A stretch of 64,000 nucleotides of DNA, taken from NCBI GenBank assembly GCA_905178155.1, contig CAJINV010000009.1, positions 1,485,907 through 1,549,906 of the forward strand, given 5' to 3'. Both the position numbers and the translations under genes were made by a program. Below the pieces are notes generated by a model. The model did not search any database, was not told the DNA's origin, and worked only from the letters and a program-made list of their open reading frames with translations. Shown in pieces: positions 3,810 through 64,000 of this stretch; positions within the stretch are counted from its first letter, which is position 1, and each line of letters opens with the position of its first letter. The DNA is from Amoebophrya sp. A120. Taxonomy: Eukaryota > Protista > Dinoflagellata.

Positions 3810-4777
3810 AATTATCGAGCTGGTGCCTGCTGTGACTAGCTGCAGAGTTCCTTCCGCAGGTACCGAAAGAGGGCAGCGCTCCGACCACATTCCCTAGATT
3901 CACTTTAAAACTGTGGTTGAACTGGTTTGGTCACATCTCATAGCTTCTTGTTTCTGTTTCTGTTTCAGTATTTACATAAGAGCTGGGAAATCATTCTCAC
4001 CCCGTCAGCATGGTAAATCATTCATTCGTTCTTTTTTTTTTACGTGGTAAACGGACAAACTCCTCATTGGATTGCATGTTAACCTCAGCTGGCATGTACG
4101 TAATAATCAGAGTAATTAGGAAAAGAGACGTGAAGTTTTTCAATCTCTTTTGTAAGATATCTACGCTCATAATCTGCTTGTAAACAACATAATCTGCTTG
4201 TAAAATATCGAATGCACATGTATAATCTGCAGGAAAGACATAGAACAAAATGAGTACGACATATTTTTAGAAGACCGAGAACCGTCATATTGAATCAAGC
4301 AGCAGCACAGGTCAAAGACAAATACGAAAATCTGAATCGGATTGTCGATGATCGTTCAGAAACTGGTGTTCTTCGTCGTCTTTTTTTCGTGAGGTTTCTG
4401 TTTGAACAAGTTTGTGAGTGTGAAGAGCACGATTCCAGTTCATTCTGATAAAAACTTCTTATTGGGTTTGGGGCTCGGAAGGAGCACAGAAATGTGGAAG
4501 TGATCGAGAGATGATGCACTGTGCGAACATACTTTTTTTGGACTTTGCTGGAGTGATGAAGTGGCAAAATTCCAAATTTTGTCCAAAAGCGAGACTGTAT
4601 ATTTAACCAGCGACCCGTCGGGTTTTTCATCTTTTTACCCTCGTAGTCGTTTTCCCCCGAAGATGATTGCCACCGCTGTCACCCCATCCACAGCTGTTTT
4701 CTACTCATTTTACTTTCCTAGCATAATTCCGCATCGACAGGGTAAAACAAAAATGCGATTTTCCACAAAAATGATCG

Positions 4778-7700
4778 ATGTCTTCTCGTAACCGGCGGCT
4801 GGCGACGCTGCTGCAGCGGTTCGGCGTAGAGAGCACGGTGCATAATTCCGGTGCGAACAAGGAGGAGAAGCAGAAGGCGCTTCGGCAGGCCTACTTCAAA
4901 CTTGCGAAGTCGGCGCACCCGGACGCGGCCCCGGAGTCCCTACGAGAGCAGGCGGAGCGAAACTTCGTGTCGTTGAACCGCCAATACGAGGAGGCGAGGA
5001 CGCTGTTGGAGCAGGAAGACACCTATTTTGCGCAACAGAGGAATTATTACGAGCATGCTCCACCCCACGAGGATGGCAGTACAACTGCAAGTGGAGGACC
5101 ACGCGGCGGCCCCGGTTACAACCCCTTCCAGCGCACTGGCAGTACGCGCACGGTGGGGAACAATCCCTTTGAAGACATGTGGGCCGAGACGGAGCAGACG
5201 AAAAGGTCGGAGAAGGACTTTCAGGCCGGAACCACCGCTGGCGTGCACACGCGCTACACGTTTTACCGCAACCAGGACGCCAACAACAAACACCATTTCC
5301 ACTGGACGGAGCGCGACCCGCAGGATTTGCTGCAGCAGAGCGACGCGTTTTCTTTCTTCGATAAGGCGAAAGCGGTGACGCTGGTCACGGGGGTGCTGTT
5401 TGGCTTCTACGTCGGGAGCCGGTTCACCGCGTCCGGAAAAACCTCATGGTTCGATCCCGCGAACGCCTCGGAGAAACCGATCGGGTTGACCAAGCCCGAC
5501 TACAAAATCGGGGTTTGGGTGGACGTATCAAATGCAAAAATGCCTGGGTCTGGAAGAATGCGCGACTTGTCATGCAGCTTTTCCATGACCCATGAGGTCT
5601 AGAATGCAGGACCTAGCATGACAGATTCTGTGCGATCTCTCTCATGCCTATTCTGCATGAGAAACTCCCTCCCGACTTGGTCAAAACTGGACGACTTTTG
5701 GTAATCATGCAACACAGATTTTTGCATGCGTCAGATTTAGCATGACAAGTTGCATTCTTCCAGACCCAGACATTTTTACATTTGATAGGACGCCGACACG
5801 GGCGAGAGCGTGGACGCGCGCGCGTTGCGTCGTGAATGGCTCGAGCAGTCCTGGTGGAAAAGCCTGCCTTTTGATCATGTCCTGTCTGGCGGCGCGCCGG
5901 TGGGAAGAATAAAAGCTTTCCATCCGAACGCGTTTGCGCCGAACTATTATTCCGCAGGTGTTGATGTCGATGAAGATACACGAAATAATTTTGGAGTGGA
6001 CGATGCTCGTGGACCGGCGACAGAGGATCAACTACACTCCGACGCAGTAGACAGCACCGTGAGTGTGTATCTAAAGCCGACCCTGCTGCGACTCGTCGAC
6101 TTCGCGATGGTATGGATTGCAAAAATGTCTGGGTCTGGAAGAGTTGGAACTTGTCATGCTGTTTTTGGACTCCAAAAAAAATTTTATTGCATGGCCAGCA
6201 ATAAGGGTGCACTTTGGGCCACACGGATAGGGCATTTCTCATGCGGAATGTGCATCAGGAAGCCCTCCAGAAGTCTGCGATGCTAGGTCATGCATTACAG
6301 GCGTCATGGGTCATGAGAAAGATGCATGACAAGTCTTGCATTCTTCCAGACCCAGACACTTTTGCATTTGATAGATGGACTTCGGGACCCCGATGCGCGA
6401 CGTGTACGATCGACGGGACTACTTTCGCGGGAGTCACATGTTTCGTCGGACCAGGTTATGCATTGCAAAAATGTCTGGGTCTGCCTCTGCAAGAATGCAA
6501 GATTTGTGATGCAGGTTTTCCATGTCCCATGAGGTCTGGAATGCGAGACCCAGCATGACAGATTCTTTGAGGTCTCTAGCATGCCTTTCCTGCATGAGAA
6601 ACTCCCTCTCAACTTGGTCAAAAGGGGACAGCTTTTGGCACTCATGCAACACAGATTTTTGCATTATTCGGAATTAGCATGACAAGTTGCAATCTTCCAG
6701 ATGCAGACATTTTTGCAATCCATACAGGTCCGAGCCGATTGTGGTGTTGGAGGAGGAGCAGGAGTTTGTCGTGTGTCTGCAGGAGAACGCAATTGAAGTA
6801 GCAGAGAACAAGAACAACACTATTTCTGGTGGCACTTCGTCAACAACATCCATCAGTTCCGCTCTGAAGGTTGCGGCAACTACTGCGTGTCCAACAAAGG
6901 AGGAAATCTCGCGAGATTCGACGACAGTAGAAGTGGACCCAGCATCCTCCTGGAATCAACCAGGCAACGAGGATTGTGCCAACGATAGTGGCGTGATGTT
7001 GCTGGACATGACATCTACAACTTCCAGTGTTGACCCATTGGAAGTATCATCTACAACGACTGCGGATGATACAGCGGAATCTGTAGCAGGAGCTCCGGAA
7101 ACATCTTTGCAGTTGCAGCGGCAGAGCGTGGCAAAAAAGATGTCGACGGCCAACCCCGTCGTTGTGTCCTGCGTTGCCAACAATCTCGACTCGTCATCTC
7201 CCGTTTTACTGCTGTGGCGGCAGGAAGTTGTAAACAGAGACGACCTAGTCCTAGACGTTCCTGCAACCGAACCTGTGCGCAGCGGAGTTCAGCGAGCAAC
7301 TGGTCAAGCACGGAAACTTGCAGAAAATAGAACAAGTCCTGAACAACAAACTGTATCGACAGGCAGTAGCACGAAGAAGCCGCTTTTGCGGGGTCGTTCT
7401 GGTGGTAATTTGCGGAGGAAAAGGAGCGTCACGGATCCGCTGGCTCGAACCCGTTCTGGGTCCTTGGGAATGGTCCCTGCCGATCTTGCGGCGAATGACG
7501 TTTCGTTGGGCACACCGTCGCAAACTACACATGCTGCATACCCTTCGGAGACAGCGGGTGTTGAGACGCGGCCGAGGCAGCATCAGTCGTCAGATGATAA
7601 TCTTCTCTCTGCTCACCAAGACCCGCGCGCGTCCGTCTGGATCATGACGCCGCCCTGGTATCGTGATTCGGTGCCGCAGGAAGCGTTAGCCACTGACCGA

Positions 7701-8525
7701 GAAGCGCAGGAAGCGGTCGTTACGCGCGGGCTCGTGGAGCTCTATGATCCAGTCATGAGGAAAAAGATCGGCTGGAACGAGGGAGAAGCAATTTCGAATG
7801 GAGACGGTGGAACAAGCAATTCTATTTCGAGTAGCACTTCTTCCTCTACGAGAACCTCCGTGAGGACAGGACTTCTAAGCGGCCAAGGGCAGCAGGATGA
7901 TTTTCTGCAAAACGCAAACAACCACAGCCAGCATTTCGACAAAAGTTCCGCGGCGAACCCCGCGCTAATCGACAGCACACGGTACGGCGACATTTCCGGC
8001 TTGCACCGAACGCGGTCCTATCTCCAGCATAATCTACTACCATTACGTGAAGAAGGGCAAGGGAGTCTAGTTTCTGGGTCTTCATCATATGCGCGAGGAG
8101 CTGGCGAGCAACAGGGCATACTTCAACACCACACGACCGCGGAAGATGGACACTATGACAAATCCGCACCAGCAGCACACATAGCTGCGGGAGAAGGGTC
8201 TTTCGCTGTTGTAGAGCGATCGACCGGCCAGACGGTCGTGCCAGCAGATGAAATTCCATCCAGCCACGGCCTCGCGAGAACAACCGCGAACCACCCACGA
8301 CCGTTGGACCCACGTACGCTGACGCGGAGCTCACGGCAGGAGCAGCGGCTTATGCTCAAGGAGAAGAATCTGAAGCGGGAACAAGAGCGACTTGCGTCTC
8401 AGATCGAGAAGACCAACGCGCGAGCGGCCGAGAAAATGTCAAGCAGTATCAGGGGAGAGAAAGAAGAACCAAATTCATACTTGATCATCGATAATGTTTT
8501 CAAACGAATCATCGGTCTCAGCTAG
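4778..8525 (+). CDS. DnaJ/J-domain protein with a TM segment and a long low-complexity C-terminus. Exons 4778-5524, 5789-6109, 6375-6454, 6728-8525
   Basis: J domain with HPD motif (LRQAYFKLAKSAHPD...ERNFVSLNRQYEEA). Removing three GT-AG introner introns (5525-5788, 6110-6374, 6455-6727) joins the ORFs at 4778, 5810 and 6687 in frame. Confidence 0.8.
5526..5787 (+). mobile_element. Family A TIR introner copy A1 (262 bp, TSD GGACG)
   Basis: ~50-bp imperfect TIR tatcaaatgcaaaaatgcctgggtctggaagaatgc... / ...gcattcttccagacccagacatttttacatttgata. GGACG at 5521-5525 and 5788-5792. Confidence 0.92.
6111..6373 (-). mobile_element. Family A TIR introner copy A2 (263 bp, TSD GATGG), reverse orientation relative to A1
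   Basis: Same TIR core (aaaaatgtctgggtctggaaga / tcttccagacccagaca). GATGG at 6106-6110 and 6374-6378. The interior is the reverse complement of the A1 interior. Confidence 0.9.
6457..6724 (+). mobile_element. Family A TIR introner copy A3 (268 bp, TSD CAGGT)
   Basis: tatgcattgcaaaaatgtctgggtctg...cagacatttttgcaatccata. CAGGT at 6452-6456 and 6725-6729. Interior colinear with A1. Confidence 0.9.
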
Positions 8526-11500
8526 CGATAAGGAAAGAGGAAGTGAAATAGAATCACTTTGTAGCGCTGGTGCAACTACAGACGACAAGTCTTTGCGAAC
8601 ATGTTACAAATGATCCACCAACTCCTGCTTATTGCACTATGTAACCCGTGGTCCTCGGTGCGTGGGGATGGCAAATCAATGAAACGACAAGACGCAGTCT
8701 GCTGATTGTAAATGCTTGCTCGAACGCCAACGCAAATGAAAACAGATACAAAATCTGGTCAGGGACAAAAATGAATAAGAATCGCGATCAATGCAAATAA
8801 AATCAAAAAACCTGATCTGGTCCTGGTCGCCGTGCACAGTAAGTATGTCGGATCAACTACAAAATCCAGCGTTCGGAGGACAATCCCGTTGTTCGCGTTC
8901 CAAATGAAGTCGCGTCTGTACGGCCCAGCAAAGGAAAATTCCAAGATCCTGAAGCGGTCCTTCTCTGCAGTTGCGAGAGCGATGAATAACCTGTGTTGCG
9001 AAAACCGTTTTCACAATGCTGCGCCGGAAGATATACAACAGACAATCTTCAGTGACTGTAGCTACCTCTGAGACAGCTCTACCGATGATTTTAGAAATGG
9101 TAGACCTCACACGTAGCGTATTGTTGATTTAATTTCAGAAAAAAAAGTATACACACCACTTCTGCCTGAAGTAGATCTATTGAGTGAAGAGTTAGAGTGC
9201 TTGTAGGTTATTATTTCCTGTGTGCCGGAAACAGAAAGTAGATACTTATTGATAGTGCCAGTTGTTTGTTCATCATTGAGGTCGGCTTAGTGGCAATTTA
9301 TTTAGCCAAAATAGGCTTCGATCTTCAATATTTCTCGAATATGAATATCTGAAGCCCTCAATGCGGAAATAATTTTTTACAGTGCGATAATCTCATTGTT
9401 TGAAAGGTCGATTTTATTACGCCACCATACGTCCTGCTGACGTAAGCACCGGTCGAAAGTGCTTTTTTGGAAAAGAAGTACTTGCTTTTCCTCGCAAACA
9501 CCGAGCACCATCACTCAGCACCCTGCGCGGTCGTTCACCAGACGCGCCAGAGTACCAAGTTCTTAGTTCGATTTTTTTGGCATCTCGCGATCCCACAGAT
9601 CCAGACTTCGGTATAATACTGTAAATATGCAGTGGCGCTTGTATTTCAACCATCCACTTACCTTCACCATCTGATTGGTTGCAAACTTCGCCTCTGCACA
9701 TGTCTGGAACAAGGTGCTAAATCAAGAACGACACTTGTGCTCTTTGTTCTTACGCAGACGCTCGGCTATTTTACCTATTTTTTGCGCATAGGTACGTACG
9801 GCTAGTACAGGCACTGCCACTGGCACTAAAAGAAGCATAGCATACGAATACAGCTGCATTCTGCAGCATATACAACGCATAGGAACTACGGCGGTCGTCC
9901 CGTCAGGTGCCAGTGCCGAAGTCTAACGTTTGAAAAGAGTTTCTTAAATTTGTGAAATTTCCACTCGGAGGTATTTTTACAAGTACATACGCACATCATC
10001 AGCACCGCTTTGCTTCGGTGCTGCCACCAGTTCCGGCTGCGGTAGAGTCGTTGCAAAGTTACTTAGTGCAGTAGAACATTTTTCACATTTTCACGTTTCT
10101 CTATCTTTTCTAAATTTGTACCTCTCCCCGTCGAAACACGGCTGCATTGACTGTACAGTGTATTTTGTAGCCGTTAGGAACAGAGTCACTGTGCAGAGAC
10201 ACGCACAGTAGCTTTGTCTCGACTTATACTGTGAAGGACCTCCCCACCTCCTCCGTCACCTTAGTGCACCGTTTGCTTAGGTGATCCCCAGGCGCAGCCA
10301 GGCTATTGCAATACGGCAGATTTTCAGAAGCTGCAACGTCGTTTCAGCGGACGAGAAAATGTCGTAGTGCGAAAATTTGGCTCAACACCGCCATTTTCGC
10401 TACTTTGTAAAATTTTTTTCCCCACCAACTGAACCCCCAGACTCCACTGGTTCTTGTAAAAGTTTACTATAGAGACTGCTCTGATAAAGAACGAACGAAA
10501 AAGGCGCGGTGCTTCGGCTTGTTGTACTACATTGTTACAATCGACCGACCTTAAGAAGTCGTGCTGCTTGTAGAGTTCAGCCTCATCGGCCCCGCCACTT
10601 TGGTTGCTCCATCCTTGAATCAGCTTCAAGCTGGAACAAGTATGTAAGTAATTATCTTCTATCGATACTAGAAAGAGGCTCTAGCTCGGATTGAGTCTAG
10701 AACAGACATACATGTTGGAAGAGGCATTTCTAGACGATTATGTATGATTGATCTAGAAACCACACGAAGCGCATACGTTAAAGTTTAACATCACAAGTGG
10801 AAAAATCAATCGGATTTCTTATAGCACTAAAATACAATACGTCTCGGACGAAGACAGACTGCTATAATAAGTTATCATAGGAGACTGATCGCCTACTCTC
10901 GCTCTCTCCGACGATACTAATCTGAGAAAACATAAAAAGAAGTCATGGCCTCATTACGACATCCACTGCCCGCGGGAACTCACGCTGGAAAAGAAAAAAA
11001 GCGAAAGACGAAAGACGAGCCGGGGATGTTGTTTCTGAAAACATGACGAAGATCCATTGCCGACCAGTTTTGTACTCTTGACCATCGATTACAGCAAAAC
11101 CGACGACAACAACTCAACGAAATTCTTAAGCTGGTGAAGGCAAAAACTGTGGGCTCTCCCTGCCCGAATACACCATTTGTTACTCCACAAGCACCTACCA
11201 CCTGACCTTTCGATCCGACAGGAGATAGAAGGGGGCAAAGCAGGTGAAGCAATATTACCACCAAGAAGTTTATTCTTGTTACCTTTTATTCCCCCAGCGA
11301 CACGAACATAAATCCTTTTTTTCACCTCGCGCACGACTAAAACCGCCCCGCAAATACGATTTGAAGGGGAGGACGCAGAACCACGAAAAAGCAGGAATCA
11401 GTATCGCCAGAGCCGAGCGTCTTCCCGATTCATTTGAGCCACCAGTTAACCCTAATTCAGTTTGGCAGATCATCGCAACAACTTCTGGAAAAGCTCGGAT

Positions 11501-11777
11501 CCAGCACACATTGCTTGGAAGCCGAAACGATCGGAGAAGTTTTCTGCCTGCAAGCAAAGAGGACCCTTCTTTTGCCGAATTAACAGAATTGCCTTACCAC
11601 GTTCATCCCTGCTGCAGCTGCAACTGTTTTATTGTGGACAATAATTTTTCTGAAAAACAATAACAAAAACGGAGCCAAAAACAACAGACGAAACCAGCTA
11701 ACATCAAAAGATCCACGAAGAAGCGAAGACGGCCATCAAGCTGGCGAACAACAGACAAAAAGTGACAAGTCCTTAGC

Positions 11778-14700
11778 ATGGCTGCCGCCGTGAGTAGCCA
11801 GCAGCCGCTAATCGGCGGCGGTTCCGCGGGCGCGTCCTCGTCGCTGCAGGTGCCCGTCCCGCAGCCCCAGAATGGAGGCGCGCAGAATGCGACCTCCCCT
11901 ACCTCTAAAGCGAGTACGCCGTCCAACGCGGCGACCAATCCGCAACGCATAATGGACAGCCAGTGGTTCATTGACCCGAAGCGCGCGAAGCAGCTCATCG
12001 AGTTCGTGGGCTTGAAGGGGCAACTGAAGCCGTTCGGGTCCTACACCTCCGGGTTGATCACCAAAACGTCCGACCTCGACGTGATGTATGAACGCCACGA
12101 ATCGGAACAGCACATCATTCCGGTACAGATTTTGCAGAAGTTTATGGAGGCCCTAGGAAAAGCGGGGTTCGTCAACTTTGTCACGGTCTTCCAGGCACAA
12201 CTACCGCTGCTGAAACTCGCGGACCGCCACGGCGTGGACATTGACATCATCGTCGACAACCAGCTGGGCTACCGAAATTCCGTGCTGATGGGGTCCTACG
12301 CGCGGATGGACCGCCGCGTGCCCGAATTCATCCGCCGGGTCAAGTGCTTCGCGAAAAGGTTCGAAATCGTCGGTAGTACTGACGGACACTTGAACAGCTA
12401 CGCGTGGACCCTGATGGCCATCTACTACCTGATGAAAGCCATGCCGGCGCCGCTGGTACCCAACCTGCAAGCGCTCGCGCAGGACGACCCAAGAGTGGAA
12501 AAAAAGTACATGCTTCCTTTTATATATTCTTCTACTAAGTACAAGTAGTAGTTCATACGAAAAATATTAAATCTTTCTCTTATTGAAACTTTCCACTGAT
12601 TTTTGCCGGCTGCGCTGTGAAAAAGTCGGTGTTCCGAAGTGAGTCGTCGCAGGGACGCAAAATTTGTATTCTGGTGCATGAAATTCAATTTGCAGGTACA
12701 TCAAGGACGGTCGTTGGGGCGCAGACCGGGAGTGGAACGTGACTTTTTTCACGGAGATCCAGAAAATCCCGCCATCCGCCAACACTCGGGCGACTACCGA
12801 GCTTCTGGGCGAGTTTTTCGAGTACTACTCCCACAAATTTGACTGGGATAAGAAGTGCGTGTCCATTCGGCTCGGGTTGACGCCGCACGACAGTCAGACC
12901 GGAGCGGACCGGAGCCAACTGGACCCTTACATCACAAACCCGAAGGACCAGAGCGGCTGGTACGTAGAGGACCCCTTTGATTTGTGTCACAACTTGGCGG
13001 GAAACGTCACCGCACGGGGGAAGGAGCGGATCATGACTGCATTGAAAAACGCAAACAACGAGATTCGGGCGCGCGGACCGGCCAGACTCGAAGAGGCGCT
13101 GAACAACGTACTTGGAATTTTTGGCTTCCTATATTGAATATTTGTAGTGGTGCTGTGTCGGGCTCGGGTCTTTATGTTTTTGTAGCGATTTTTTCTTCTC
13201 GCGACTACCTAAAAGGACAGATCGCGCTGCAGTATCTTCTCATGACTTTCATCATGCAAATCTAAAGGATAAAGATTTGGAAAATATTTGTGATATTTTG
13301 TTCCTGAAGCTGAAAAAGAAGATGGAGAAGAAAATGAACAAGATCTGTGAAAAAAAAACAGCTCTGTCCGCTCTCCTGGCGAGCCGCGGCCTTGTTCATG
13401 AAGTGCCGGGTAAATCTGGAAAAAGTCACGGAGGAGCAGTTTCGCGAGGCGTTCGCGGAAATGAAATTTGACGACGAGGTGATTTTGTGGTGGCCATCGA
13501 ACCGGCCACAAACGAGCCCAATCATGGATGCGTTTCTCCAATTTAGGTCGGATCACGACCGAAAAAGGGCACACACGAAATCGGAGTCCTACGTAGGACA
13601 GTGGCAAATACGGCTGCTGTACTGCTGCTGCGCCGTGCTGAAAGACGTACTTATTTTATACTTTGGTTTTCTCCTTGAGATCATGAATGTTTTTGGCTTT
13701 TGAAGAGGACGAGGACCAAGAGCAGCTGCAGCTCGCAGGCTTGTTTATTGGATGTTTTGTTGATAGGACGCAAACGCATAGACGTTCGAATTTTTCGATT
13801 CATCGATTGAAGGACAAAAACCGATTTCTTCCAGGCGTACAAAGACAACGACAACCACCTGCAACGGGTGACTGTGAACCCCGCCGCCCGGCAGTCGGGT
13901 CTCCACGTAGACAACCCGGTGATTCCCTCGATCAAGCAAGCCTTAGCCCCGTTCACCGGTGACCCGAGGCAGAAAAACTTTCAGGCGCTCCGGCACCTGT
14001 ACTTTATCTCGCAGAATTCGCAGCACCTCCTAGCCCCAGGATCGGTCGACAACTTGGAGTACGCACCGGAGGGGGAGTCCCGCGTGGCCGCGACGGATAA
14101 GCTCGGCTCGAACATGTCTACGGTGGCGTACCTGTTGGGCAACATGGACGCGAACTTTCTGGAACACTTCCTCCAGGACCCGAGAAACGGCCAGCTGATT
14201 AACACATTGCAAAAGTATCAATCTACAACTCAGATGTGATACAGATTTTTGCTGTTGCGAATGCAATTTTATTCAATTTGCTACGTAGTTTGGGTTCTTG
14301 TGATTTTTGCACTCTCTATACAACTAGTTGAGTCCAGAAAAGGCCAGCGCATGTCTTAGTCACATCGGGAGATGATCCTATAGCTTCATTGTCGATTTCG
14401 CGATATATTTCAGGTTGTACGACCTATTCGTGCGCAGAAGAAATCACGAGGGTCGCGGCGCTGCGACCACACCCATCGGGCCCCCCGGTCTCAACAAGGA
14501 TGCAGGAGACCCAGCAGCAAATGAGCTGGACACGGCGAGCGGGAGCGCAAATGCCGCGCCCGGCGGCGGCTCATCCCCACAGGGGAATGCCGCAAATGGA
14601 ACGGGTGCACAGAGCCGGAAGCAAAGTGTAGACCCGGACGCGAATCAGATGTTGACTCAAGCACAGATCGAGCTGGACGCGATGGATGCACTGCAAATGT

Positions 14701-17146
14701 CCAGTAACAACAAAGAATACCAGCCGCCGCAGGGGGCCCCCGCGCATTCCGTTGCTCCACCTGGAGCTGCGACGCCAGGCATGATGCACGCAAATACAAC
14801 AACTTCGGTGCCCCGCGCAATTCCACCGGCGCAACAAGGAGGTCAACATCTCAACACCAGTAACCCCGCGGTACTAAACGGCGGAAAAGGTGGTGGACCA
14901 CTGCCACAGAATCAGCAGCAAATGCTGGAAAATCAGCATGCACAGCAGCAACAGCACTCAGGCACGAACGGCAACCGGCCACCGGCGACCACGCAGTCCT
15001 CGCACAGCAACTTGGGCACCCCGACCGGAAATCAAGGACACCAGCCAGTGGGGACGAACAATCAACAAGTCCAACCGCAGCAGCAGCGCAGTCCGCAGAA
15101 CAATAATAACATGCAGGGGGACTCGTCCAGCTCCACCGCACCGTATCCGCGGGACGGCGCCGGGAAAGGCGGGGTGAAAACGATGCACCAACTCGGCGAG
15201 ATGATCTTCCATGGACTTCACGCCTATATCCCGAACCTGGGGACGTCGGTGCCGAAACCTTTCGTGGAGGAAACCGTGCGAAGTCTGGACAATTACGATG
15301 CCGAAGAACTGAGAAGAAGACTGCAAACGGTGTCATGATTTTTTCAAATTATCGGTCGACGTAAGGAGCATGTTGAAAACTACTACGGTGAGTGACGCGC
15401 GAAGAATGGCTTGTAGTGCTTAGATAGAAAGTCCTCACTGCAGCTCATGACAAAAATGCGGTGTGTCACAACGTAACAAAAGCGCGAACATATTACAACC
15501 ATGCTGTTTCTGACAAGAAGATTTTTTTTGCAAAAATACATGAAAAGCGCAAATATACAACACGCAGATTCAATCGATCGCCATGAAGCACAAGTCGTAC
15601 ACCCCTTCGATTTCGAGCAAAGTTAACGGCGGAAAATCTGGCAGTAATCAGAAATTGTTGTTTGACTCCTGGGTCAATTCCGTTGTCGCAGATTGGGAAA
15701 CTGCGAGAGTATATTTGTTGCCTGACTTTTGTAATTTCAAATGCAGTTACAGTTTACTTTCTTGAAGATGTGCATGTGCTTGCACATTTCTTTGTAGAGA
15801 CTTGTCATTGATATTGTCCTCTTTCCTGCTGTGTGCAATGATTTTAATGCGAAATTATAAAGCAATCACTATCACACAACAGGCCCGTCATCCTGATGCC
15901 GCTGCTGTGGACTCGAAGCGCGAAGTTGCGCCCACGATCATCAGCAGCAGTGCCCAGATGGCGTCGCAGATGCTGGAAAAGGCGACACAGCAGGTCGGCA
16001 ACCAACCCTCCAACCGCGATGGCGGACAGCCGGGGGGAAACCAGCCCTTTCTGACCGAACAGCAGATGATCGCTTTTCTGAAGCAGCTATCAAATGTAAA
16101 AATGTCTGGGTCTGGAAGATTGCAACTTGTGATGCTGCCTTTCGATTCCAAAAAAATCTGTATTGCATGAGCAGCAAAGGGAATGTACATGTAGTTTTTG
16201 CGTACGCGGAGAGGGCATTTGTCATGCGGAATATGCATCAAGAAGCCCTCAAAAGATCTGTGATGCTAGGGCACGCATCACAGACGTCATGGCTCATGCA
16301 AAACGTGCATGACAAGTCTCAAAATTTTCCAGACCCAGACACTTTTACACTTGATAACAGCATCCGAACCTTGTGACCGCGGCCGCTGAGAACCCAAGCT
16401 TGGTCGCCAGCTTCATGGGCCCCCACCAGAGCAAGCGAGCGGAGGAGATCGTGGAAAGCCTCGTGAATCAGCAAAGCGACAGCGAAATGAACACGAACGC
16501 GCCCGTATCGTAAAGAAAAATCCCCCCTCCCCATATCGAAAAGGTATGTTTGCGAAGATTTGTGTTGCTGATTTGAGGTCACAAATCACATTTGTCTTCC
16601 AAGAAGACAAGGGCAGAAGCTTCCACCCCATTACTGAAGCGATTTGTCATGCTGTTGGGCCTAAAACTGAGCCGCTTGCCATGCTGAACAACTAGACCCA
16701 TACGCCCCTGCCTAGCCTGGGGATCTGGCCGCAATGCCCCTCTGCAATACAGACCTGATTTGTGTATCCAAATCCAGCATCAGAAGTTTCGTTTTGATAT
16801 GGGGAGGGGGGATTTTTCCTTTTGATAGCCCGGTTCCTGGGAGCAGCGCAGCACGACCCCCCAACGGGGGATAGTCGCGGGCGGGCAACAAGGCCCACCG
16901 GGGGTCCCCGGGGGCGGGGGTCCCGGAATGAACGCTTTGCCGAAAAACGGCACGGTGCCACAGGTGCTGCGCAGGCCCGAAAATGCGGGACCAGGAGTCA
17001 ATGTGAATGGAGCGGCAGGCGGCGGCCCAGGAAACCAGCAACGGGGAGGCCCCGCTGCGCAACAGCAGTCTGCGGATCGGTCTGCATCGCTCAACCAGAC
17101 CCCGGACGTAGCACCCCCACCACCGCCTCCGCTGCAGTTTCAGTAA
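11778..17146 (+). CDS. Cid1/TUTase/Trf4-like non-canonical poly(A)/poly(U) polymerase with PAP-associated domain, a possible RRM and a Q/N/G-rich tail
   Basis: Nucleotidyltransferase motif FGSYTSGLITKTSDLDV plus third Asp (DIDII), LNSYAWTLMAIYYL, and PAP-associated YVEDPFDLCHNLA. Frame-preserving introns: 12506-12695, 13108-13361, 13647-13834, ~14214-14413, 15330-15882, plus two introners (~16087-16360, 16505-16828). Confidence 0.82.
16088..16356 (-). mobile_element. Family A TIR introner copy A4 (269 bp, imperfect TSD gCAGC/aCAGC)
   Basis: tatcaaatgtaaaaatgtctgggtctggaagattgc...ttccagacccagacacttttacacttgata. Interior colinear with A2. Confidence 0.88.
16506..16827 (+). mobile_element. Family B TIR introner copy B1 (322 bp, TSD GCCCG)
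   Basis: TIR tatcgtaaagaaaaatcccccctccccatatcgaaa / ttttgatatggggaggggggatttttccttttgata. GCCCG at 16501-16505 and 16828-16832. GT-AG intron 16505-16828 restores the frame. Confidence 0.9.
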
Positions 17147-49679: not shown

Positions 49680-52386
49680 ATGGTATCGCTTTCGTCCGTT
49701 CCGCGGCAAATCATCCATCACCACTTATTTTATGGTAACTACGACGGACATCCGCCGGGCGATCTCGAACTCGCCATCTCCACATTGCGGCGACCCATGA
49801 CGCCACAGTTGACACAAGATGACAGCGACGAGCGCGCGTTGATTTTTCTTGCCGGCGACAGCAGTCTGGACAACAAATTTTGGCTCGGCCAGCGTGCACA
49901 GGCGCTAAATGGCTACGAAAATATCATCCTCCCCCCTCTGATGAAGCAAGACGTTTGCTTCTGGATCAACTCCTACCTGATCAGAAAAAATCTCCACGCA
50001 AATACCGCCTGCGTCAACTGCGCTGTCGAGGCGAGCTCTTTGTCCTCCCGAGCGTTTGGCGTGCTGCACAAACAGGACGCGATCATCCAAAAATCCCTAA
50101 CGCCCAAAGACACCCTGATTGTCAGCATCGGGGGGAACGACATCGCACTAGTGCCGAGTCTGTTGACCGTCGCGAACTTACTTGTCCTCAGTTGGTTGGT
50201 CCCGAAAACCTGCACGGAAAAATGTGCCTGCAGCGTCGGGCCGCCGAATCTCGTTCCGGACATGGGCTGTTGCTGCGGCTGCCATGTGCTGAACTGTGCC
50301 CAGAGCTATCTCTGCGGGTGGCCACCGGGATTTGGGTACTTCGTGGATTTATTCAAAAACCGCGTGAAGAACTATGTGAAGAAACTGGTGAAGATCTCTT
50401 CAACCGGGCGGGTGAAGAAGATGAAACCGAGACGCAGCAGCAAGAGCAGGCTTTGGAGCTAAGGGTGAACGCAGCAGAAGTGATTACCGAAGAGGGCATC
50501 TCCGAGAAGGTTTTGCCGTTCGAGTCATACGATCTCGTGGACAACGAGAGTGCCATCAGCCGACTCTTGTCGAGGGAGGCGAGCCATGAGGGAGACGTCC
50601 ATATGTTTAAATCAATTATGAGGGCGCAGAAGTTGAATATCATGTATCCGCGGTCGATTTTACATATCTCGGACCTCCTCAACTTGGCAGACGTACTGGG
50701 AAAATACTTTCCTAGTACGCATGAGAAGATGCTGAGGTTCCAGGAGGCTATGAGAGGATACTTCAAGTGGTCGCTGCCAGGAGACAGGAAGATGGTAAAC
50801 GGAGGTCTAGGAGTGCTTCGACGGCTAAAGCAAAAATTGTGATGCAAAAGGGTAATCTGTTTGTGGGCCTTCTGAGAGAGAAGTGCTAACAGCAGAAAAG
50901 AAAGTGCTAGTGGGCGTTCTGGCCGGGAGCCAGTACTGCTAACAGCCTGGAAGAGACCAGGGTCATTTTCGAACGGAAGGTAATTGGAATTGAGTGTTTT
51001 CGGATGCGGTTTTAAAGAGAAAGTAACATCACTACGGAGTCAAGGCAAGGAGGAGAAAAAGGAAGTTGTTTGAGTTGAACATAAAGCAGTCACTCTACGG
51101 GCAGGACATGCGTTTTCGCGTAAGCTTTTACATGTTGGTTTAGTGCCGGTTTTATAACATTACAAAAATTACGTTTTATAAACTTTTCAGCCGCGAGGGC
51201 TTCTCTTCCAACGCGAGGTTGGAAGTCTCCGTCGTTTTGTATTGCGCGAGGCAATAAGAAATGACACCCACTAGCGGTCACGCGAGGTGACTGCGAAACA
51301 GAAGACACAACAGTAGTAAGAAATAAATTTAAGATGTTTTAGTTGTTTTTCACTGAAGAAGCTCTATTCAGCGACAGTTAGTCATGATCTTTGTTGTTTT
51401 AAAAGATATCCAGTTCTCATAATTTGTGATCGTTTTATCAGAATAGGTTATACATATTTGTTTACGAAACTACTTTAAGTCGGGGGGTATGTTAAAATTT
51501 GATGTGCAAATCGATACCAAAATGCTCACATAGTTTCTTTACAAATGTTGTTCGAGAGAGAAAGCGATCGGATCCTTTTTGTTCGTGCGAGTCGAGTCTG
51601 CTCACAAAAAGCGATGAAAGAGCACCAGAATCTCGAATGCTTCCACCTCAACTTTTCCCCTCTGGGCCTCTGGCTCAAGCCAACCAATAATACCGCAGCG
51701 AGCTCTTTTTTTGTGCCAGCGAGAACGTGCACTATTTCTACGTATACGCACCGTGTTCTGCCACTGTTTATGATCCACATTTGCATGCGCAACTGGATCG
51801 AGCCCTAAAATCCACATTATTCAAAAACCGCGTGAAGAACTATGTGAAGAAATTGGTGAAGAACTGCGCTAAAACCGCGACGAAAAACAAGCCTCTTCGT
51901 GTGGTCATTTGCATGATTTACTTCCTGGACACGAACCCGCGGTCGGAATCCTGGGCCGGCTTTGCCTTGTCCTGCATGCGATACAATTCCTACCCCGCAA
52001 TCCTGCAGACCGCGATCCGACAAGTGTTCTACTGGGCCACCGCGACGATCAAGATTGAGAAGTGCGAGGTCATTCCTTTCGCACTGTTTGACGTGTTGGA
52101 CGGAAACACACCGGAGGATTACGTGGCACGGGTGGAGCCCAGCGAGACCGGGGGAAGGAAAATGGCAAAAGCTCTCGTGGAAAAATTGTATCCGGAGATG
52201 AGAGGCGAAAAAAGCGAGACTAGCATGATCACTCAAGATTCTGAGCACGAGGACGCAGATTCTCAACAGAACACACTGGCAACCGCATTGGGCGCTCCAA
52301 CGCCACAGTTCATGACAAGGAGCAGCAGTGTCAATGATGATGTTGAAAAAACGCAGTTTATTCAGCCCCCTGGCATGGGTTCTTGA
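49680..52386 (+). CDS. SGNH/GDSL-like hydrolase split by a 1.4-kb insertion (functional only if the insertion is spliced out)
   Basis: Block I IFLAGDSSLDN and block III VSIGGND lie in the 49680 ORF; VVICMIY...DYVARVEPS lies in the 51727 ORF. Both ORFs contain LFKNRVKNYVKKLVK. Confidence 0.75.
50395..51816 (+). mobile_element. 1,422-bp insertion flanked by a 46-bp direct repeat, carrying a 5'-truncated ORF
   Basis: ttattcaaaaaccgcgtgaagaactatgtgaagaaa(c/t)tggtgaaga at 50349-50394 and 51817-51862. A ~148-codon ORF remnant ends at 50842. Confidence 0.7.
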
Positions 52387-52913: not shown

Positions 52914-55900
52914 ATGTCAAACGTCCGACCTCAGCAGCTGACGAGCATCCGTCAGGAGACGGCGCAGGGCTTGGCCGAGATGCGACAAGGCCAACAGGAG
53001 GAGCCGCACGCGAAGCGCCAGAAAGTGGAGAACCTGCAGCCACTCGACGCTTCCCTGGCGGACATCCGCCGCGAGGCTATGGGCGTCGGCGCGGCGGGGT
53101 CGTCCAGCAGTAGCAGCAGCCGGCCCCAGACCATGACGGCACTGACGGGCAACGCGAATGCAAACCAGCTGTTCCCGCAGGTGGACAGTGAGAACGCGTT
53201 TTGGTTCTACTACCAAGATGCCCACGAGGACGTCTCTCTGCGGAACGGCGTGTGCCGGGTGTTGCTGTTCGGGAAGATTTTCCTGCCGAACCAGCAGCAG
53301 GTGTCCAGCACGTGTTGCGTCGCGGTGCACAACATGAAGCGAAACGTGTACCTCTTGCTGCGGGAGCAGGGGTTGACGCCAGAGGAGCACGCCAGGAAAG
53401 CCCAAGAAGCGTTTTTGGAATTCCGAGAAGCACAATTGAGAAAATCGCTGCGACAAGGAAGAAGTACCTATTTGTGCATTTTTTTGGTGGAAATTGATGC
53501 ATGATGATGCCGACCCCACATATTTTGCAAAAGAAGTTCTACGGTCAACGATCATGAAATGATCGCGACTTTCTTGCGAGCGCCGTATTATAAAAACAAA
53601 AATGACTTCTAACATGAGCCCTTGGCATGATCTCTACTCACAGACGCCGACGCGGCTTTGGCGCAGGTGACCTGGAAGGCGGTAAAACGAAAGTACGTGT
53701 TTGAGCGCGAGATTCCGCACCCGCACGGCGAACTGCAGTGGTGCAAGGTCACGTTCGACGGTTCGTGCAGCCAAATTCACGACGTTGGAGGCACCCACTA
53801 CTCGGACATCTTCGGCACGCAGACCTCCTTCCTGGAGATGTTGTTCAAAAAGCGGTCCCTGAAGGGCCCGCAGTGGATCCGCGTGACGAACGCCCAGCGG
53901 GGAAATGAGTCGCTCTCTTACTGCCGGTTCGAGGCCCACATTCCCAGCCACAAGTGCGAGTACCTCATGTCCAGCTACGACCTGTTCATGAAGAAGAAGA
54001 CCCCGGTGACCAAAATGCCCTCCATCTCCCCGCCCATCACTGTGGCGATTCTCGGCGTAATATCAAAAGGAAAAATCCCCCCTTCCCATATCGAAACGAA
54101 GTTTCTGATGCTGGATTTCCGTACACAATCAGATTTGTCTTGCAGTAGAGGACTGCAGGCATATGTCAAGCCTCAGTCGAGGGGTTTTGACGTAGGCGCC
54201 TAGCAAGACAAACGCGTATGCTCTAAGCCCAACAGCATCACAAACCGCCTGCGAAATGTGGGGCGCTGTCTGGTCTTGCCTTCTTGCAAGACAGACAGGA
54301 TTTGAGGTCACAAATGCGCATCACAAATTTTCAGACGGATACGTTAACGTTTTCAATATGGGGAGGGGGGATTTTTCCTTACGATAGGTAAAGACGCAGC
54401 AGAAAACCAAGGGCGGCCAGCACGAGTTGACCTACCTGTCCCTCTATCAAATGTAAAAATGTCTGAGTCTGGAAACTTGTAATGCTGCGTTGGGAATAGT
54501 GGATGCCCTGTAATGCACAGGCAAGCATGAGAAATATCTGCGCTAGCTACTCAGATAGAAGGAAGAAACATATACAAAAAGTGGCGACAGGGTTGCTATT
54601 TTAAAGATTGCGCTAAAGCAGCACCCCCCTTCCCCAAGGGGTTCCCCCGGGGCGGGCGCGATGGCGGCTCCGAGTAGGCGGAGCCCTGGGGCCCGATTCT
54701 TCGGAAACGCATAAGAAGGGCGCGCGGAAACAGGTCGGCTAAAGTGCTCGAAAGGGGTACGCTTTGGGGTTGTCCGTCATCGTGATAGGGTCAGCAAGTA
54801 TGACCAATAGCCCCCCAGTTTACGTAATAGCGCGCAACCGGCCAAAAAAGTAAGACTCGAGCAAGTTTGTAAGTCTAACCCTTCAAGGCCACGCCGAAGC
54901 TCCACCTTGCTCGCGGGCTTGGATGGTAAGGGGGTTCTGCCACATGTAGCGCCCACTGGTCGTAGTTGCGCGTAAGTAATCGATAGCGGTTTTGCGGATG
55001 CGGCCGGGTGGTAGTTAGGACGTGGAGCAAGTATCCACCTAGGGGTATCGGCAGAGGCTAAATCTGTTCTAACGCCCAGGTATTGGCAGAGGCTAAATCT
55101 GTTCTAACGCCCACCCGCCAGGAGTCAAATGGTCACTACTACTACGACTTCTTTGTGTTGCGTTTTTCGCATGACAAACTGCGTTTTTGCATGACAGGCC
55201 GAAGGGCCTCTTCTTGGACACGCGTCACAAACTTTTTGGTCATGCCAGACAACCATGACAACTCTCGCAATCTTCCAGACCCAGACATTTTTGCATTTGC
55301 TACCCTCGGGTGTCCCCAGGGGCACGGCTTTCAGGTGGACTCCCCCGCGCCCTGCAACGAGTACCAGGATACATTCTACCGGTGGGGGATATTGAGGGCC
55401 ATCGAGCTGCCGCCGACGGCGAAGCCGAATCAAAAAGTGGTCGACTACGTCTCCGCGCTGCGCCAGCCTCTTCCTGGTATACAAAACTACGAGATGCAGG
55501 TGGCAAACTCCGAGAAGCAGATGCTACTGGATTTCTTGAAGAAGTTGCAGCAAATCGACCCGGACGTCATTGTGCAGCACAACGCGTACGGCTTCGGGTT
55601 GGACGTGTTAGCGAACCGCCTCTCCGTCCATCGCGTGCAAAACTGGGACATGGTATAGTTAGAGGCTACGTTTATTTGGTACAACGCGGTCGCGGCCCCC
55701 CTGCGTCCACCAGAAAAGAAAGATATTTGCGCTAGTGTAGATTTGTTGATCTGTACAAGAAGATCCATGATGGTTTTTACCTTTACCCATAAACACGATA
55801 GATGTCCCGTCTGCGCCGCGTCGGGGATTTTCAGTACCGGAAGACGAGCAACTCGGGCTTTTACCTGGCCCGCCAGCTGACCGTTGGTCGGTTGGTTTGT

Positions 55901-58900
55901 GACTCCCTGCTCTCCTCCCGAGACTTGGTCGGAAAGCTGACCAACTACGAGCTGCCCAGTTTGGCGAAGAAGCTTTTCGATCAGGACGTCCCAGACCCGC
56001 CAGACTACCACGAGTGCGTGCTCGTTTCCACCACGGCGGCGGTGCAAAACTTCGACATGTTTCGGTACTGGCTGTGCTACACGTTTGACGAACTGCGACT
56101 GACGTTCAACATTCTGCACCGCCTGGAGATTCTGACGCTTTCCAAGCAGCTGACCATCATCGGCGGGAATCTCTGGGCACACTCGCTGCAGAACAAGCGC
56201 GCAGAGCGGAACGAATTTCTGCTCGTCCACGAGTTTTACAAGGAAAAGTATCTGTGCCCGGACAAGGCGGACATCTACGCCAAAAAGAACAAAGCCCCCG
56301 CGAACGAGCTGGATTTCATGATCAACGACGCCCTCGACGAAAGCCAGCAGGTTGCGCAGCAGCAAAACGCCCCAGGTGGGAAGGGCAAGGGGCCGCAGTA
56401 CTCCGGGGGGCTGGTGCTGGAGCCGAAAGTGGGGCTGTACGATGACTTTGTGCTGCTTTTGGATTTCAACTCGCTTTACCCGTCCCTGATCCAGGAGTAC
56501 AACATCTGTTTCTCCACCGTGCAGAGACCCCGAGGGGACATCATCGGCACCATGACGGAGCAAGAGCTGATGCAGGCCACGAAGCCGCCGCTGAGCAAAG
56601 ACGAGAAAAACGAAGGGATTCTGCCGCGAGTTTTGAGACGGTTGGTGTCCAGTCGGAAAGAGGTGAAGAAACAGATCAAAGAGACACCCGCGTCCGACAC
56701 AGCGAAGTTGCAGCAGCTGGAAACGAAACAAAAAGCCATCAAGCTGACCGCAAACTCCATGTACGGGTGTCTCGGGTTTTCAAACAGCAGATTCCACGCA
56801 AAACCGATTGCCGCCCTGATCACGCAACGGGGGCGGGGCGCGCTTTCGGAAACGCAACAACTGATTGAAGGGTATCTATTCTATGATAGATTGTCGTCTG
56901 TTTCCTATGCAGTTTTGTCTTATTCATTGATGTGTGCACGCTGGTGTTGAACAGAATATTTGAACGAAATGCATGTCAGTCAGGAACAGAACATGATGCA
57001 GCACACTGTTTAACTGAAACAATTTTCTTGACGTCGCCGTACCAAACACTACTGGTCAAAAACAGGCTTCAATACGACGTTGTGTACGGTGACACCGATT
57101 CTGTGTTTGTGCGGTCGTTCACGAAAGAGTACGGGGACGCCGTGAAAATCGCGCAGAAGATAAAGTCCGAGGTGAACAAAAAATACCGCAAATTGGAAAT
57201 CGACCTGGACGGCGTGTTCCAGCGAATTTTGCTGCTGAAGAAGAAGAAGTACGCGGGGCTGAAGGTGGTGAACTTCGAGAACAAGCAGTTCGAGCAGGAG
57301 TACAAGGGGCTGGACCTCGTTCGTCGCGACTGGTGCAAGCTGTCGAGCGACATGGGAAAGGAGATTCTGGAAAAAATTCTCGGCGGGGAGTACTCCGAGG
57401 ACGGCATCGTGGACTGGATACACGAATACCTGAAGGACATCAGGAAAAAAATCGACAACAACGAGATTCCAATGTATGTCCATTTTTTTTGGGCTACCAC
57501 TTATGTGTAGTTGTGACTCCTAGTCTTTGTATCCGCTTTGCTGTGAAGAAGCGAACGGGAGCAACCAGTTGCGTGTGAATGAAAAGCATGAAAAATATAT
57601 GTCTATGTAGTACTTATCATCACATCAGCGCGCAATACGTGATCACGAAGGGTATTTCGAAGATGCCGCACGAGTACCCGGACCCCCGCAACCAGCCGCA
57701 TGTCATGGTCGCAAAACGCATGATTGAGCGCGGACAGACGGTCAATGTGGGTCTCGAAGTTCAGTACATCCTGTGCCGGCCAAAGATGGTGGAGCAACCG
57801 AACGCTGACCCGATGTCGGACGAGAAAGTGTACACACCCGTCCCGAACTCGGCCATAAAGCCGGAGAACATGAACAACGTGGGTCTGTGTGCGTTCCACA
57901 TCTCGGAGCTGGAAGACGCGAACAACAACATAGAACTGGACAAGGAGTGGTACCTGAAAACGCAAATCCACCCGCCACTCATGCGGCTCCTCCAGCCCAT
58001 CCCGGGGACGGACAGCGGAAAAATCGCCGAAGCGCTCGGCATGGATGCGAGCCGGTTCCAAATCGCGAACCTGGGTGGCGGCGCTATCGACGACGAAATC
58101 GACTTTTCAAATTCGCTCGTCGAGGAAATATTGAATCCTATGACCAGATACAAGGGCGGGAAGTTGAACTTCGAGATCAGCTGTATTTCCTCCTTTTTTT
58201 TTATGCGACAAGGATGGACCTCTCCAACGACGGAAATACATGCAATTCTGTAGTACTAGATTTCCTCCGATATGCATAGAAGCTATTTTGACACAACTTG
58301 CAGGTCCAAACTGCAAGAAGGCTTCCTCGCTGCAGAAACTCCTGGGATTGAACGAAGATTTGAAGGTCATCGACGAAGATCTCGTGCTGCGTTGTGACTA
58401 CTGCGGCGCTTCCGATCCTTCCAGACTCTTCTACCAGATTGCCGATTCCCTGCGGCAGTTCCACAACCGCTATATGGACGGCTTCACGAAATGCACCGAG
58501 CCAACATGTATTTCTCTTTCATTTGGAAAGAGCATTCACGTTTTTTCGTGTTTCTTGGTTCTCTTGGTTCTTGAGTAAGTACTTCGCTATGTGAAAGCGT
58601 TTACGTGCTGCTGCCACCAAACCTCAACAGGTCGTCGCGTCTCGAAAACCTTATCGCTCGCCAGTATTGGTAGGAGGTGCGAGAACCCGCATTGTCGGAA
58701 CGTGGTAAAAGAGGAAGTTACGCAGCAGATGTTTCAGGACGAACTGAATTTGATGTTTGTGTGCGTTACGCAGGCCATAGCCGGCGTGCAGGGCGGCCGA
58801 AAGAAGGACCCGCGGCTGTTCCGGGCTTTGTCGAGCGTGCATGGCTACTTGAACGCTGCCGTCGGCAACAGTGCCTACAATCGCGTGAACCTTACCAGTC

Positions 58901-62739: not shown

Positions 62740-64000
62740 ATTGCCACAAATCATGCCTCGTCAGACGTCCCAAACGGCCTCCACTCCGTCGCGCAGCAGC
62801 AAGATTGTTGCCGCCGCGGGCGTGTTTTTACAAACAATTCCGGGCGTTAACAGTCGCGCGCCCAATTTTGCGAAACTTTTGCGACGTTTTTGCGAGATTT
62901 GCCGTTTTGGCCCAGATCAGTCACGAGGACTATTTTGCTGCAGCTGCGGGCGCTTTGGTAAAGCCCGGCCACCCGCGATCCTCCCCTGTTTTCGCGCCCT
63001 TGGAGCGGGGCAACGAGAAGGCCGACCCCGAGCGCGGCCCCGATCTCGAGCGGGCCGCATTAGCAAGCAGACTGGGGCTGCCCACACATCTCTCCCGGGC
63101 TGCCCCTTCCCCCTTTCCAAAGAAATAGGTAGCAAAGGACGCGGGCCAGGCTTTGCCTCAGCCCCGGGGGCAGGGCGTTGTGGCCGCCGGCGATCCGCCT
63201 TGCACCTGGCCGTATTCATTCTCCCTACCAGCCGAAGCCACTAGGGCCCAGCATTGGCAGGCTGGCAGACTGGCGCCCTGTGTGGTCGCCCCGGGTACCG
63301 GCCAGGGGGCCGGCCAGGCAGGACGGCGGCGGCCGTTGCCTTTGCAAGAGTGCGCCTTCTGCGCGCCACATTGGCTGCGCACAGGCCCGCTTCCTTGGGT
63401 GGCCCAGCGCGGCTGCAGCTGGTGCGCCTGGCCTTGAGGGGGTGTCTGTGGGATAGATTTTCCTTTGGCCGGCGGCCTTGTCGTGCGCAGCATGAATGCC
63501 TTGCCGGCGGGGGGAACTTTGAAAACTTGGGGGCGAGGAGGAAAAACGGACACAAGGGATGTCGGAATCTTCCGGCAGAAATTGCGCACAAAAAAATCGA
63601 CTTCGGGGAAAGCGAGCCAGTAAGCCTATTCGCAAAAATCTCGCAAAAATTTGGGACCCCTTTCGCAAAAATCTCGCAAAATTACTAAGCCTGTTCGACC
63701 ATGAAAAATGGGAAATCGGACAAATCGATTTGCGCCATATGCAATTTATAAGCCTGTTCGCAAAAATCTCGCAAAAATTTCGCAAAAATCCGGCATCCTT
63801 TTTTGCAAATTTCGCAGAAATCTCGCAAAAATCTCGCAGAATTCCCGGGAAAGCGAAAAAGCGCAAGGGGCCTGCCGCTTTTTGTGTGTTGCCCCGCTCC
63901 CAGCCTCGATCAGGGGTCGGCGGCCATGGCCCGGGGCGCCGACCTTTGGCCCCGCGCGCGCGCGGCCCAGGCAGGGGGTGGGCCATGTGGGCGACGCCGC
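62740..64000. repeat. GC-rich repeat element with an array of TCGCAAAAA motifs; runs off the window end
   Basis: ttcgcaaaaatctcgcaaaa copies at 63629-63840 and inverted ttttgcga copies at 62866-62900. No protein domain in any frame. Confidence 0.55.

Follow-up and report, generated by a model that had tools for sequence, protein, structure and literature searches.

The window analysed here, a stretch of 64,000 nucleotides from the marine parasite Amoebophrya sp. A120 in which positions are counted from the first letter, contains POLA1, the gene for DNA polymerase alpha, and within it an introner that has itself received an insertion, which we call the cargo. We lean towards reading the cargo as a copy of a dispersed non-coding family, likely a non-autonomous retroposon of the class devoid of long terminal repeats (non-LTR) that resembles short interspersed nuclear elements (SINEs) or short internally deleted elements (SIDEs), lying in an introner that is spliced out. 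Evidence from beyond the window comes from contigs and reads of sequencing runs, in which other copies are known as fragments. The host gene was recognised by Pfam (PF00136/PF03104/PF08996), and its exon at 55802-56869 encodes protein that is 100% identical to DNA polymerase alpha of Amoebophrya sp. A120 and 66% identical to that of Amoebophrya A25.

The introner, a member of what we call family A, occupies 54445-55302 on the + strand (858 bp). It is bounded by terminal inverted repeats (TIRs) of 30 bp at 54445-54474 (+) and 55273-55302 (-), which are 90% alike, and by a 5-bp target-site duplication (TSD), CCCTC, whose left copy lies at 54440-54444 (+) and whose right copy begins the downstream POLA1 exon at 55303-55652 (+). 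The upstream exon, 54388-54439 (+), is defined in run X1 by the joints 54056>54388 and 54439>55303, and its frame is open once joined. The second of these joints skips the element together with one CCCTC, 863 nt in all, with five letters fitting either side, and none of its six registers has GT..AG. One X1 contig carries it, at depth 79 and with a shorter side of 30 letters; X1 itself behaves as RNA, three GT..AG introns of POLA1 being joined there; the five POLA1 exons joined, this joint included, read through 811 codons with no stop. A first-pass annotation of this DNA had supposed that the element is removed from POLA1 RNA, which the joint bears out, and 54445-55302 is a functioning non-canonical introner of an already published kind. 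The A120 and A25 genomes are reported to have non-canonical introns whose ends bear inverted and direct repeats (PMC7789003), and the host shell resembles Amoebophrya introners as outlined by Farhat et al. 2021 (PMC7789003) and Gozashti et al. 2025 (PMC12130899): it is likewise non-canonical, with TIRs and a short direct repeat that spans the exon borders, and likewise non-autonomous, resembling a miniature inverted-repeat transposable element.

Four empty siblings of family A lie elsewhere in the window, at 5526-5787 (262 bp, +, the orientation of the host copy), 6111-6373 (263 bp, -), 6457-6724 (268 bp, +) and 16088-16356 (269 bp, -). All have TA...TA ends and 5-bp duplications of their own, one of which matches at four of five letters. 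The TIRs, TSDs and TA...TA ends confirm the initial description of an 858-bp element with family-like ends and four siblings of 262-269 bp. The depth of the family-A arms in run X5, 29,000-52,000, is that of a repeated family; one published introner family, fam12, counts 331 copies of 252-260 bp (PMC12130899). The copies at 6111-6373 and 6457-6724 are 83 bp apart in opposite orientation and form a long imperfect palindrome, with a third family-A copy 323 bp upstream of the pair. A second introner family is represented at 54057-54387 and 16506-16827 (73% alike, opposite orientation); its member in POLA1, 54057-54387, has GT..AG ends, is spliced in X1 and lies 52 nt upstream of the non-canonical family-A copy.

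The limits of the cargo can be read from copies of the host introner that lack it. An empty-site joint, 54542>55148, which leaves out 605 nt, was found in X1, X2, X3, X5 and X9 (an estuary run), that is in all five contig runs and in five of the eight runs examined; the remaining three, the raw-read runs X14-X16, gave 89, 1 and 0 reads, which cover only TIR ends of another locus and are no test of the cargo. Ten X5 contigs carry this joint, the shorter side of one of them measuring 34 letters, and the listing for X5 adds nine empty-site variants that are rarer. Its presence in all five contig runs means that the empty form of the host subfamily is common, and it fixes the cargo at 54545-55149 on the + strand or, equally, at 54543-55147, there being CT on both sides. 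The first-pass annotation had called 54541-55140 foreign; foreign it is, within these corrected limits. The insert begins with a copy-specific 5' part (54545-54586, +) that is in part the complement of the sequence flanking the insertion site; X5 depth in it is near single copy at 54551-54573. Near its 3' end, at 55044-55113 (+), the duplicated 35-nt hairpin noticed earlier is indeed present as two tandem units that are 97% alike, at an X5 depth peak that makes it the most abundant part of the family, and a short tandem tail, (CTA)3-CGACT, follows at 55136-55149 (+), behind the position (55129-55133) at which other copies end loosely in different tails. The earlier statement that the cargo holds no long open reading frame (ORF) is correct, the longest stop-to-stop frame being 108 amino acids and none of nine frames reaching the Pfam cut-off. 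GCTAAA occurs four times (54612, 54738, 55057 and 55092, two of them from the duplication), mostly in predicted loops, and is a possible protein-binding motif.

The cargo is a multi-copy family of its own and not a host RNA of this intron. Cargo-like contigs with 7-29 differing letters occur in all five contig runs (X1, X2, X3, X5, X9), and the likeness of the relatives ranges from below 80% to 95%; such diverged copies, whose flanks and short tandem tails are different, make the cargo a second mobile family, and the POLA1 copy differs from the published Amoebophrya introners in carrying this nested insert. In X5, which we take as DNA and which may be the source of the window, and in which unique contigs have depths of 43-53, depth summed over the family body runs from 208 to 16,401 and is highest at the 3' end. 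Along the insert it is 61 at 54551-54573, in the copy-specific 5' part, 2,100-4,700 at 54597-54665, 200-1,450 in the middle, 5,700 at 54896-54918 and 7,400-16,400 at 55034-55125. Summed depth is not copy number; as a rough sign, it suggests that relatives number in the tens to hundreds and have blocks of conserved sequence. At four other 3' ends the likeness to the window lasts until 55129-55133, where (ACT)n, (AAACG)3, (GCGAT)3 or CGGCA/CGGCT takes over, and one other copy terminates in the identical CTACGACT before an unrelated flank. The 5' ends vary, two copies diverging upstream of 54578 and 54587. No TIR or LTR was found in the cargo, and target duplication amounts to 0 or 2 nt (CT). An X3 contig of 2,426 nt and depth 76 starts with the family's 3' end and a tail. 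Among the possibilities raised at first, that of a nested parasite thus fits, a separate multi-copy family inside a commonly empty introner.

A loose end in X2 (the consensus of two contigs, agreement 0.67) follows a family-A arm to 54543 and continues into cargo-like letters, and an X3 family-A arm matches it. Two origins would suit this arm, namely another insertion at that site and a derivative formed by deletion between two TGCGCTA, at 54539 and 54609. The arm also suits a rather unlikely alternative, in which a longer composite TIR introner subfamily, comparable to families 38 and 196 of A120 (808-811 bp), has the cargo as its interior and carries it along as a passenger of the TIR shell; family 38, as tabulated in PMC12130899, has a 5-bp TSD, TA/TA termini like family A and a length of 808-810 bp. 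Family 38, however, carries ORFs with Copia/Gypsy homology according to the same source, and the cargo has none such. Three other cargo 3' ends enter flanks unlike family A, and the exact POLA1 composite stands at single-copy depth in X5. Three motifs gave no match in 12 of the 14 supplementary files of PMC12130899, and the published families were compared by description.

Contigs identical or nearly identical to the cargo occur at depths of 13.7 and 8.3 in X1, 5.8 in X2 and 6.2 in X3, where the X1-X3 runs are RNA by guess and contigs show neither ends nor levels. Such contigs would be expected from slow splicing, from an excised intron that lingers or from DNA, and gaps in the coverage of the cargo in X1-X3 carry no meaning. 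The first-pass annotation had proposed that a folded RNA, for instance a guide or scaffold for the excision or mobility of introners, is released at each splicing. A stable released RNA is not supported by these low-depth contigs. The intron is excised, and in X1, where the cargo contigs are present, depth is 0 in the middle bins of two POLA1 introns with GT..AG ends; yet the X1 contigs of POLA1 exons (depth 79-146) are 6 to 25 times deeper than those of the cargo, folding is near chance (see below) and the cargo copies are many and diverged. Empty introners moreover form spliced families of hundreds of copies without cargo, and a guide or scaffold role for their machinery is not supported, most family copies being empty. 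We regard a functional host RNA as very improbable.

Searches for known relatives gave little. No Rfam family reached its gathering score in the 64-kb window, and none matched inside the cargo down to an E value of 10, the two weak matches (E 1.8 and 3.9) both lying in the host arm. No tRNA was found in the cargo, and the + strand has no CTGAnGA, in agreement with the initial remark that hammerhead, group II and tRNA consensus sequences are absent. A group II intron, hammerhead, twister or other Rfam family was rejected for want of a family-model match in the 64 kb, and a SINE in the strict sense for want of a head derived from tRNA, 7SL, 5S or snRNA (Rfam to E 10 and a tRNA search). BLAST of the cargo against phages gave two records of 30 nt and against plasmids three of 24-40 nt, both at chance. 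Pattern scans returned 0, 121, 2 and 1 viral loci, 34 metagenome loci and 48 and 18 loci in prokaryote genomes; none of these 224, searched by BLAST against the element, extended past the seed, so that no homologue emerged among them. One, in a Verrucomicrobiota metagenome-assembled genome (locus L218, 493-726), has a 107-nt tandem repeat with three seed copies and is otherwise unlike the cargo.

The cargo had been described as highly structured. Its minimum free energy (MFE), -221.5, compares with -212.0 +/- 6.0 for 40 dinucleotide shuffles (z -1.6); z is -0.6 when the duplicated 3' part is left out, none of 13 windows of 120 nt falls below z -1.4, and 54881-55135 folded alone gives z -0.28. 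The z of -4.9 for the whole element includes the long duplex of the TIR arms, and a structure beyond chance is not borne out. All 12 checked helix segments named at the outset can pair at their places, and the predicted ensemble contains most of them at high occupancy, whereas those at 54744-60 and 54877-83/54930-36 are outcompeted by other pairings. The claimed preference for the + strand holds as far as folding goes (z -1.6 against +0.2 on the - strand), but the + strand is G-rich (181 G, 151 C). Predicted features include an 11-bp hairpin at 54578-54602 (+; pair probability at least 0.80), which starts the family body, and a multi-branch domain at 54830-54973 (+) closed by 54830-44/54957-73 (pair probabilities 0.91 and 0.59), on which variants fall on both sides.

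A conserved structure of the cargo is no more than plausible. We used 46 listed single-site variants (40 of the 113 rows of one contig comparison and six rows of another). On the MFE, maximum-expected-accuracy and centroid folds they break 17, 15 and 12 pairs, where 19.0, 18.2 and 15.7 are expected (P 0.28, 0.16 and 0.13); on the - strand P is 0.66-0.93. The sparing of stems by the listed variants is non-significant (P 0.13-0.28), and among the 46 no pair has both partners changed; the test is weak, since partners may hide in the other 73 rows. In favour of a shared fold, G54841A and C54961T are compatible with helix 54839-44/54957-62, an X3 copy has AA for GG in that helix and repairs the A.A mismatch of the next, and loop changes cluster at 54673-77, 54794-800 and 55027-30. 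Against it, predicted stems are disrupted by G54968A (all of the non-self depth in X5), T54966C, T54874A, C54811A and G54932C, for none of which a change of the partner is listed; in these hints variant and partner were never seen on one molecule. Other copies do not keep the GCAAGT loops that recur in this one. Across copies, the loops at 54794-54800 and 55027-55033 follow (G/A)-C-N-N-G-T-(A/G), which fits a C-N-N-G tetraloop with G.U or A-U closing and a bulged purine. Likenesses to signal recognition particle RNA, a telomerase template, the hepatitis C virus internal ribosome entry site and IE-intron motifs were dropped as short matches with no model support.

The cargo can also be drawn as a self-splicing intron of group I type that entered the introner RNA by reverse splicing, with the 5' exon ending at U54544, the intron at G55146, a guide at 54571-90, P3 at 54830-38/54965-73 and P7 at 54956-62/55001-06. 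As in nuclear group I introns (IC1, IE), the drawing has a P3/P7-like pseudoknot and a guide-like duplex. This duplex, 19 bp with U.G at the junction of a 602-nt excision, has an energy of -20.7 kcal/mol, reached by 1.4% of 3000 window junctions and 0.4% of shuffles (0.2% and 1.6% for an extended version); the P3/P7-like descriptor was matched in 7 of 300 shuffles, and ACG stands near the end of four tails. The ends, however, do not agree with the empty site. None of the 10 joints listed for empty sites in X5 corresponds to the 602-nt product; an excision of 605 nt is what the common empty site demands, and with that length the duplex lies close to the mean of the null. Another copy likewise has the ACT that follows the supposed last G, which assigns it to the element. 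GC-rich windows elsewhere in the cargo reach equal energies, a strong local hairpin covers the guide, and by eye no P4/P6 fits with short J3/4 and J6/7. There is no Rfam match, and nuclear group I introns are described as restricted to ribosomal DNA (PMC8395846), in which the cargo does not lie. We consider such an intron highly unlikely, and the precise insertion expected of one, after U and ending in G, is not seen: no register of the 605-nt empty site gives U|...G|.

In the 3' half of the cargo, a descriptor match predicts a core resembling the hepatitis delta virus (HDV) ribozyme at 54881-54926 (+). Its P1 pairs 54882-87 with 54918-23 (6 bp), P3 pairs 54905-07 with 54915-17 (3 bp), L3 is 54908-14 (7 nt) and the 5' strand of P2 is 54899-904. 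The best candidate for the P2 3' strand, 55023-55028 (+), makes six Watson-Crick pairs with 54899-904; a second, 55121-55125 (+), recognised by eye and not by descriptor, makes four and one wobble and follows G-C-C-A. The predicted P1-P2-P3 nested double pseudoknot has its parts in the right order. L3 holds U54908, C54912 and G54913, the U...C-G of the reverse wobble, and HDV-like ribozymes fix U19, C23 and G24 in L3 (PMC6326823; features of the core were also compared with PMC3774820). In P1.1 the one pair is C54910-G54925, the second position being G.G. The descriptor, which demands neither G1 nor the catalytic C, matches once in the 64-kb window, both strands considered, and in 1 of 5000 shuffles; an earlier one requiring both gave 34 loose matches on the + strand and 2 on the -, none with a proper L3. 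The core overlaps the longest stretch with no listed variant (54898-54931, 34 nt, P about 0.04), and at the base of P4 two other copies pair at five of six positions against four of six in the POLA1 copy.

Taken together, what the contig fragments show is what a retroposon would leave: a dispersed, multi-copy, non-coding family with neither TIR nor LTR, a fixed 3' body with tandem tails (five of them, the POLA1 copy included) and variable 5' ends. Reverse-transcriptase sequence and sequence like that of long interspersed nuclear elements (LINEs) are entered for A120 in the introner dataset table of PMC12130899. A reverse transcriptase borrowed from a LINE would have copied the family RNA by target-primed reverse transcription, and this would account for a fixed 3' body with a tandem tail, a copy-specific 5' end and a 2-nt overlap with no target duplication. 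Extra bases templated at the 5' junction would explain why the copy-specific 5' part is complementary to the target. One copy would have landed in the introner of POLA1, an essential gene, and have been tolerated there because removal of the introner depends on its ends, the cargo leaving along with it. The HDV-like core is a predicted family feature: as the motif does in R2 and L1Tc, it would once have freed the element's RNA from transcripts shared with a host, or would still do so in other copies, and in the POLA1 copy it would be inactive. The closest parallels are the SIDEs of R2 (PMC3414825) and NARTc, RIME and SIDER of the L1Tc/ingi clade (PMC4035085), which, as presented there, are likewise short, non-coding and multi-copy and share a variable 5' junction, an HDV-type P1/P3/L3/P1.1 motif and plausible co-transcription with a host gene.

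Several points weigh against this reading. No whole second copy has been read, so that ends, TSDs and copy number rest on fragments; the cargo shows no poly(A) tail, no TSD and no tRNA or Rfam head, and no autonomous partner element was identified for it. Some LINE clades leave no target-site duplication. X5 depth is lumpy, with no steady rise towards the 3' end. The HDV descriptor was written after the motif had been seen, which makes the true odds weaker. C54881 faces U54924 in place of a G1-Y pair, P1.1 has only one pair, and the catalytic C is missing 4-5 nt before 55023 both in the POLA1 copy and in two others; in two copies T or A replaces G55027 of the best P2, and no change of its partner is listed. 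The core is moreover internal, 336 nt from the 5' end of the cargo, whereas R2, SIDE and L1Tc elements have the motif at the 5' end (PMC3414825, PMC4035085), and from these published elements the cargo also differs in the missing G1 pair and catalytic C, in a P4 region of about 90 or 190 nt, in tandem tails instead of poly(A) and in having no identified LINE partner. Designed ribozymes lose cleavage on a C-to-G change at the catalytic place (PMC6326823). An active HDV-like ribozyme in the POLA1 copy was rejected on the G1-Y pair and the catalytic C, and to judge from its letters activity there is unlikely; of the ribozyme option raised at first, it is the ribozyme-like motif that stands. The core may descend from an HDV-like ribozyme. 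Where C-R-R-A is expected at the catalytic place, C-C-A precedes the weaker P2 partner at 55121; as this partner also lies in the most conserved block of the family, an active form with a very large P4 is conceivable.

An insertion with no TSD and a shared CT also fits a recombinase. In that alternative, an unlikely one though not negligible, a non-autonomous element is moved at a CT core with no target duplication by a recombinase or HUH enzyme (DIRS/VIPER-SIRE-like, Crypton-like or IS200/IS91/Helitron-like), its hairpins acting on single-stranded DNA or RNA. The exactness of the insertion, with CT on both sides, speaks for it, as do the second copy with the same terminal CTACGACT, the complementarity of the cargo 3' end to an internal 8-mer (54958-65) and the reading of the insert on the - strand as TC...CTAG. 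DIRS, Crypton and IS91 entries are present in the A120 introner tables of PMC12130899. Copies nevertheless differ at both ends, and two letters are shared by chance at about 1 in 16 junctions. Tandem tails are not typical of such elements, which we counted against them. Helitrons have TC...CTRR ends with a subterminal hairpin and insert between A and T; the cargo has TC...CTAG on the - strand but lies between G and C and has no hairpin before CTAG, and a Helitron was rejected.

Retroposon or not, the cargo represents an undescribed multi-copy non-coding repeat family in A120, in a host introner whose kind was already published. No earlier description of the family was found in the openly accessible literature (subscription papers, such as Roy et al. 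2023, were outside reach). The word "nested" does not occur in the main text of PMC12130899, nor "ribozyme" in that of PMC7789003, and among the matches listed by title and abstract in the openly accessible literature we found no paper on an HDV ribozyme in a dinoflagellate genome or on a ribozyme in Amoebophrya or in introners.

Two further repeats lie in the window. A 49-nt direct repeat at 50349-50397 and 51817-51865 (96%, with a 12-nt inner period) brackets about 1.4 kb, and two arrays of an 11-nt unit at 63630-63681 and 63758-63838, about 130 nt apart, are possibly the arms of another introner.

The POLA1 element gives direct evidence that a TIR introner can still be removed after gaining 605 bases, which points to end-based recognition in the non-canonical splicing of Amoebophrya. 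If the core is active in some copies, or if the family targets introners, this would be a new niche for ribozyme-bearing retroelements. It is doubtful, though conceivable, that both hold in a strong form, the 3' half (54881-55125) being an HDV-fold ribozyme with a very large P4 that is active in other copies and the family inserting repeatedly at one introner site to be removed by host splicing. Were that true, a retroelement would be using an introner of several hundred copies as a safe harbour, and the family would be the first of self-cleaving ribozymes in a dinoflagellate nuclear genome.

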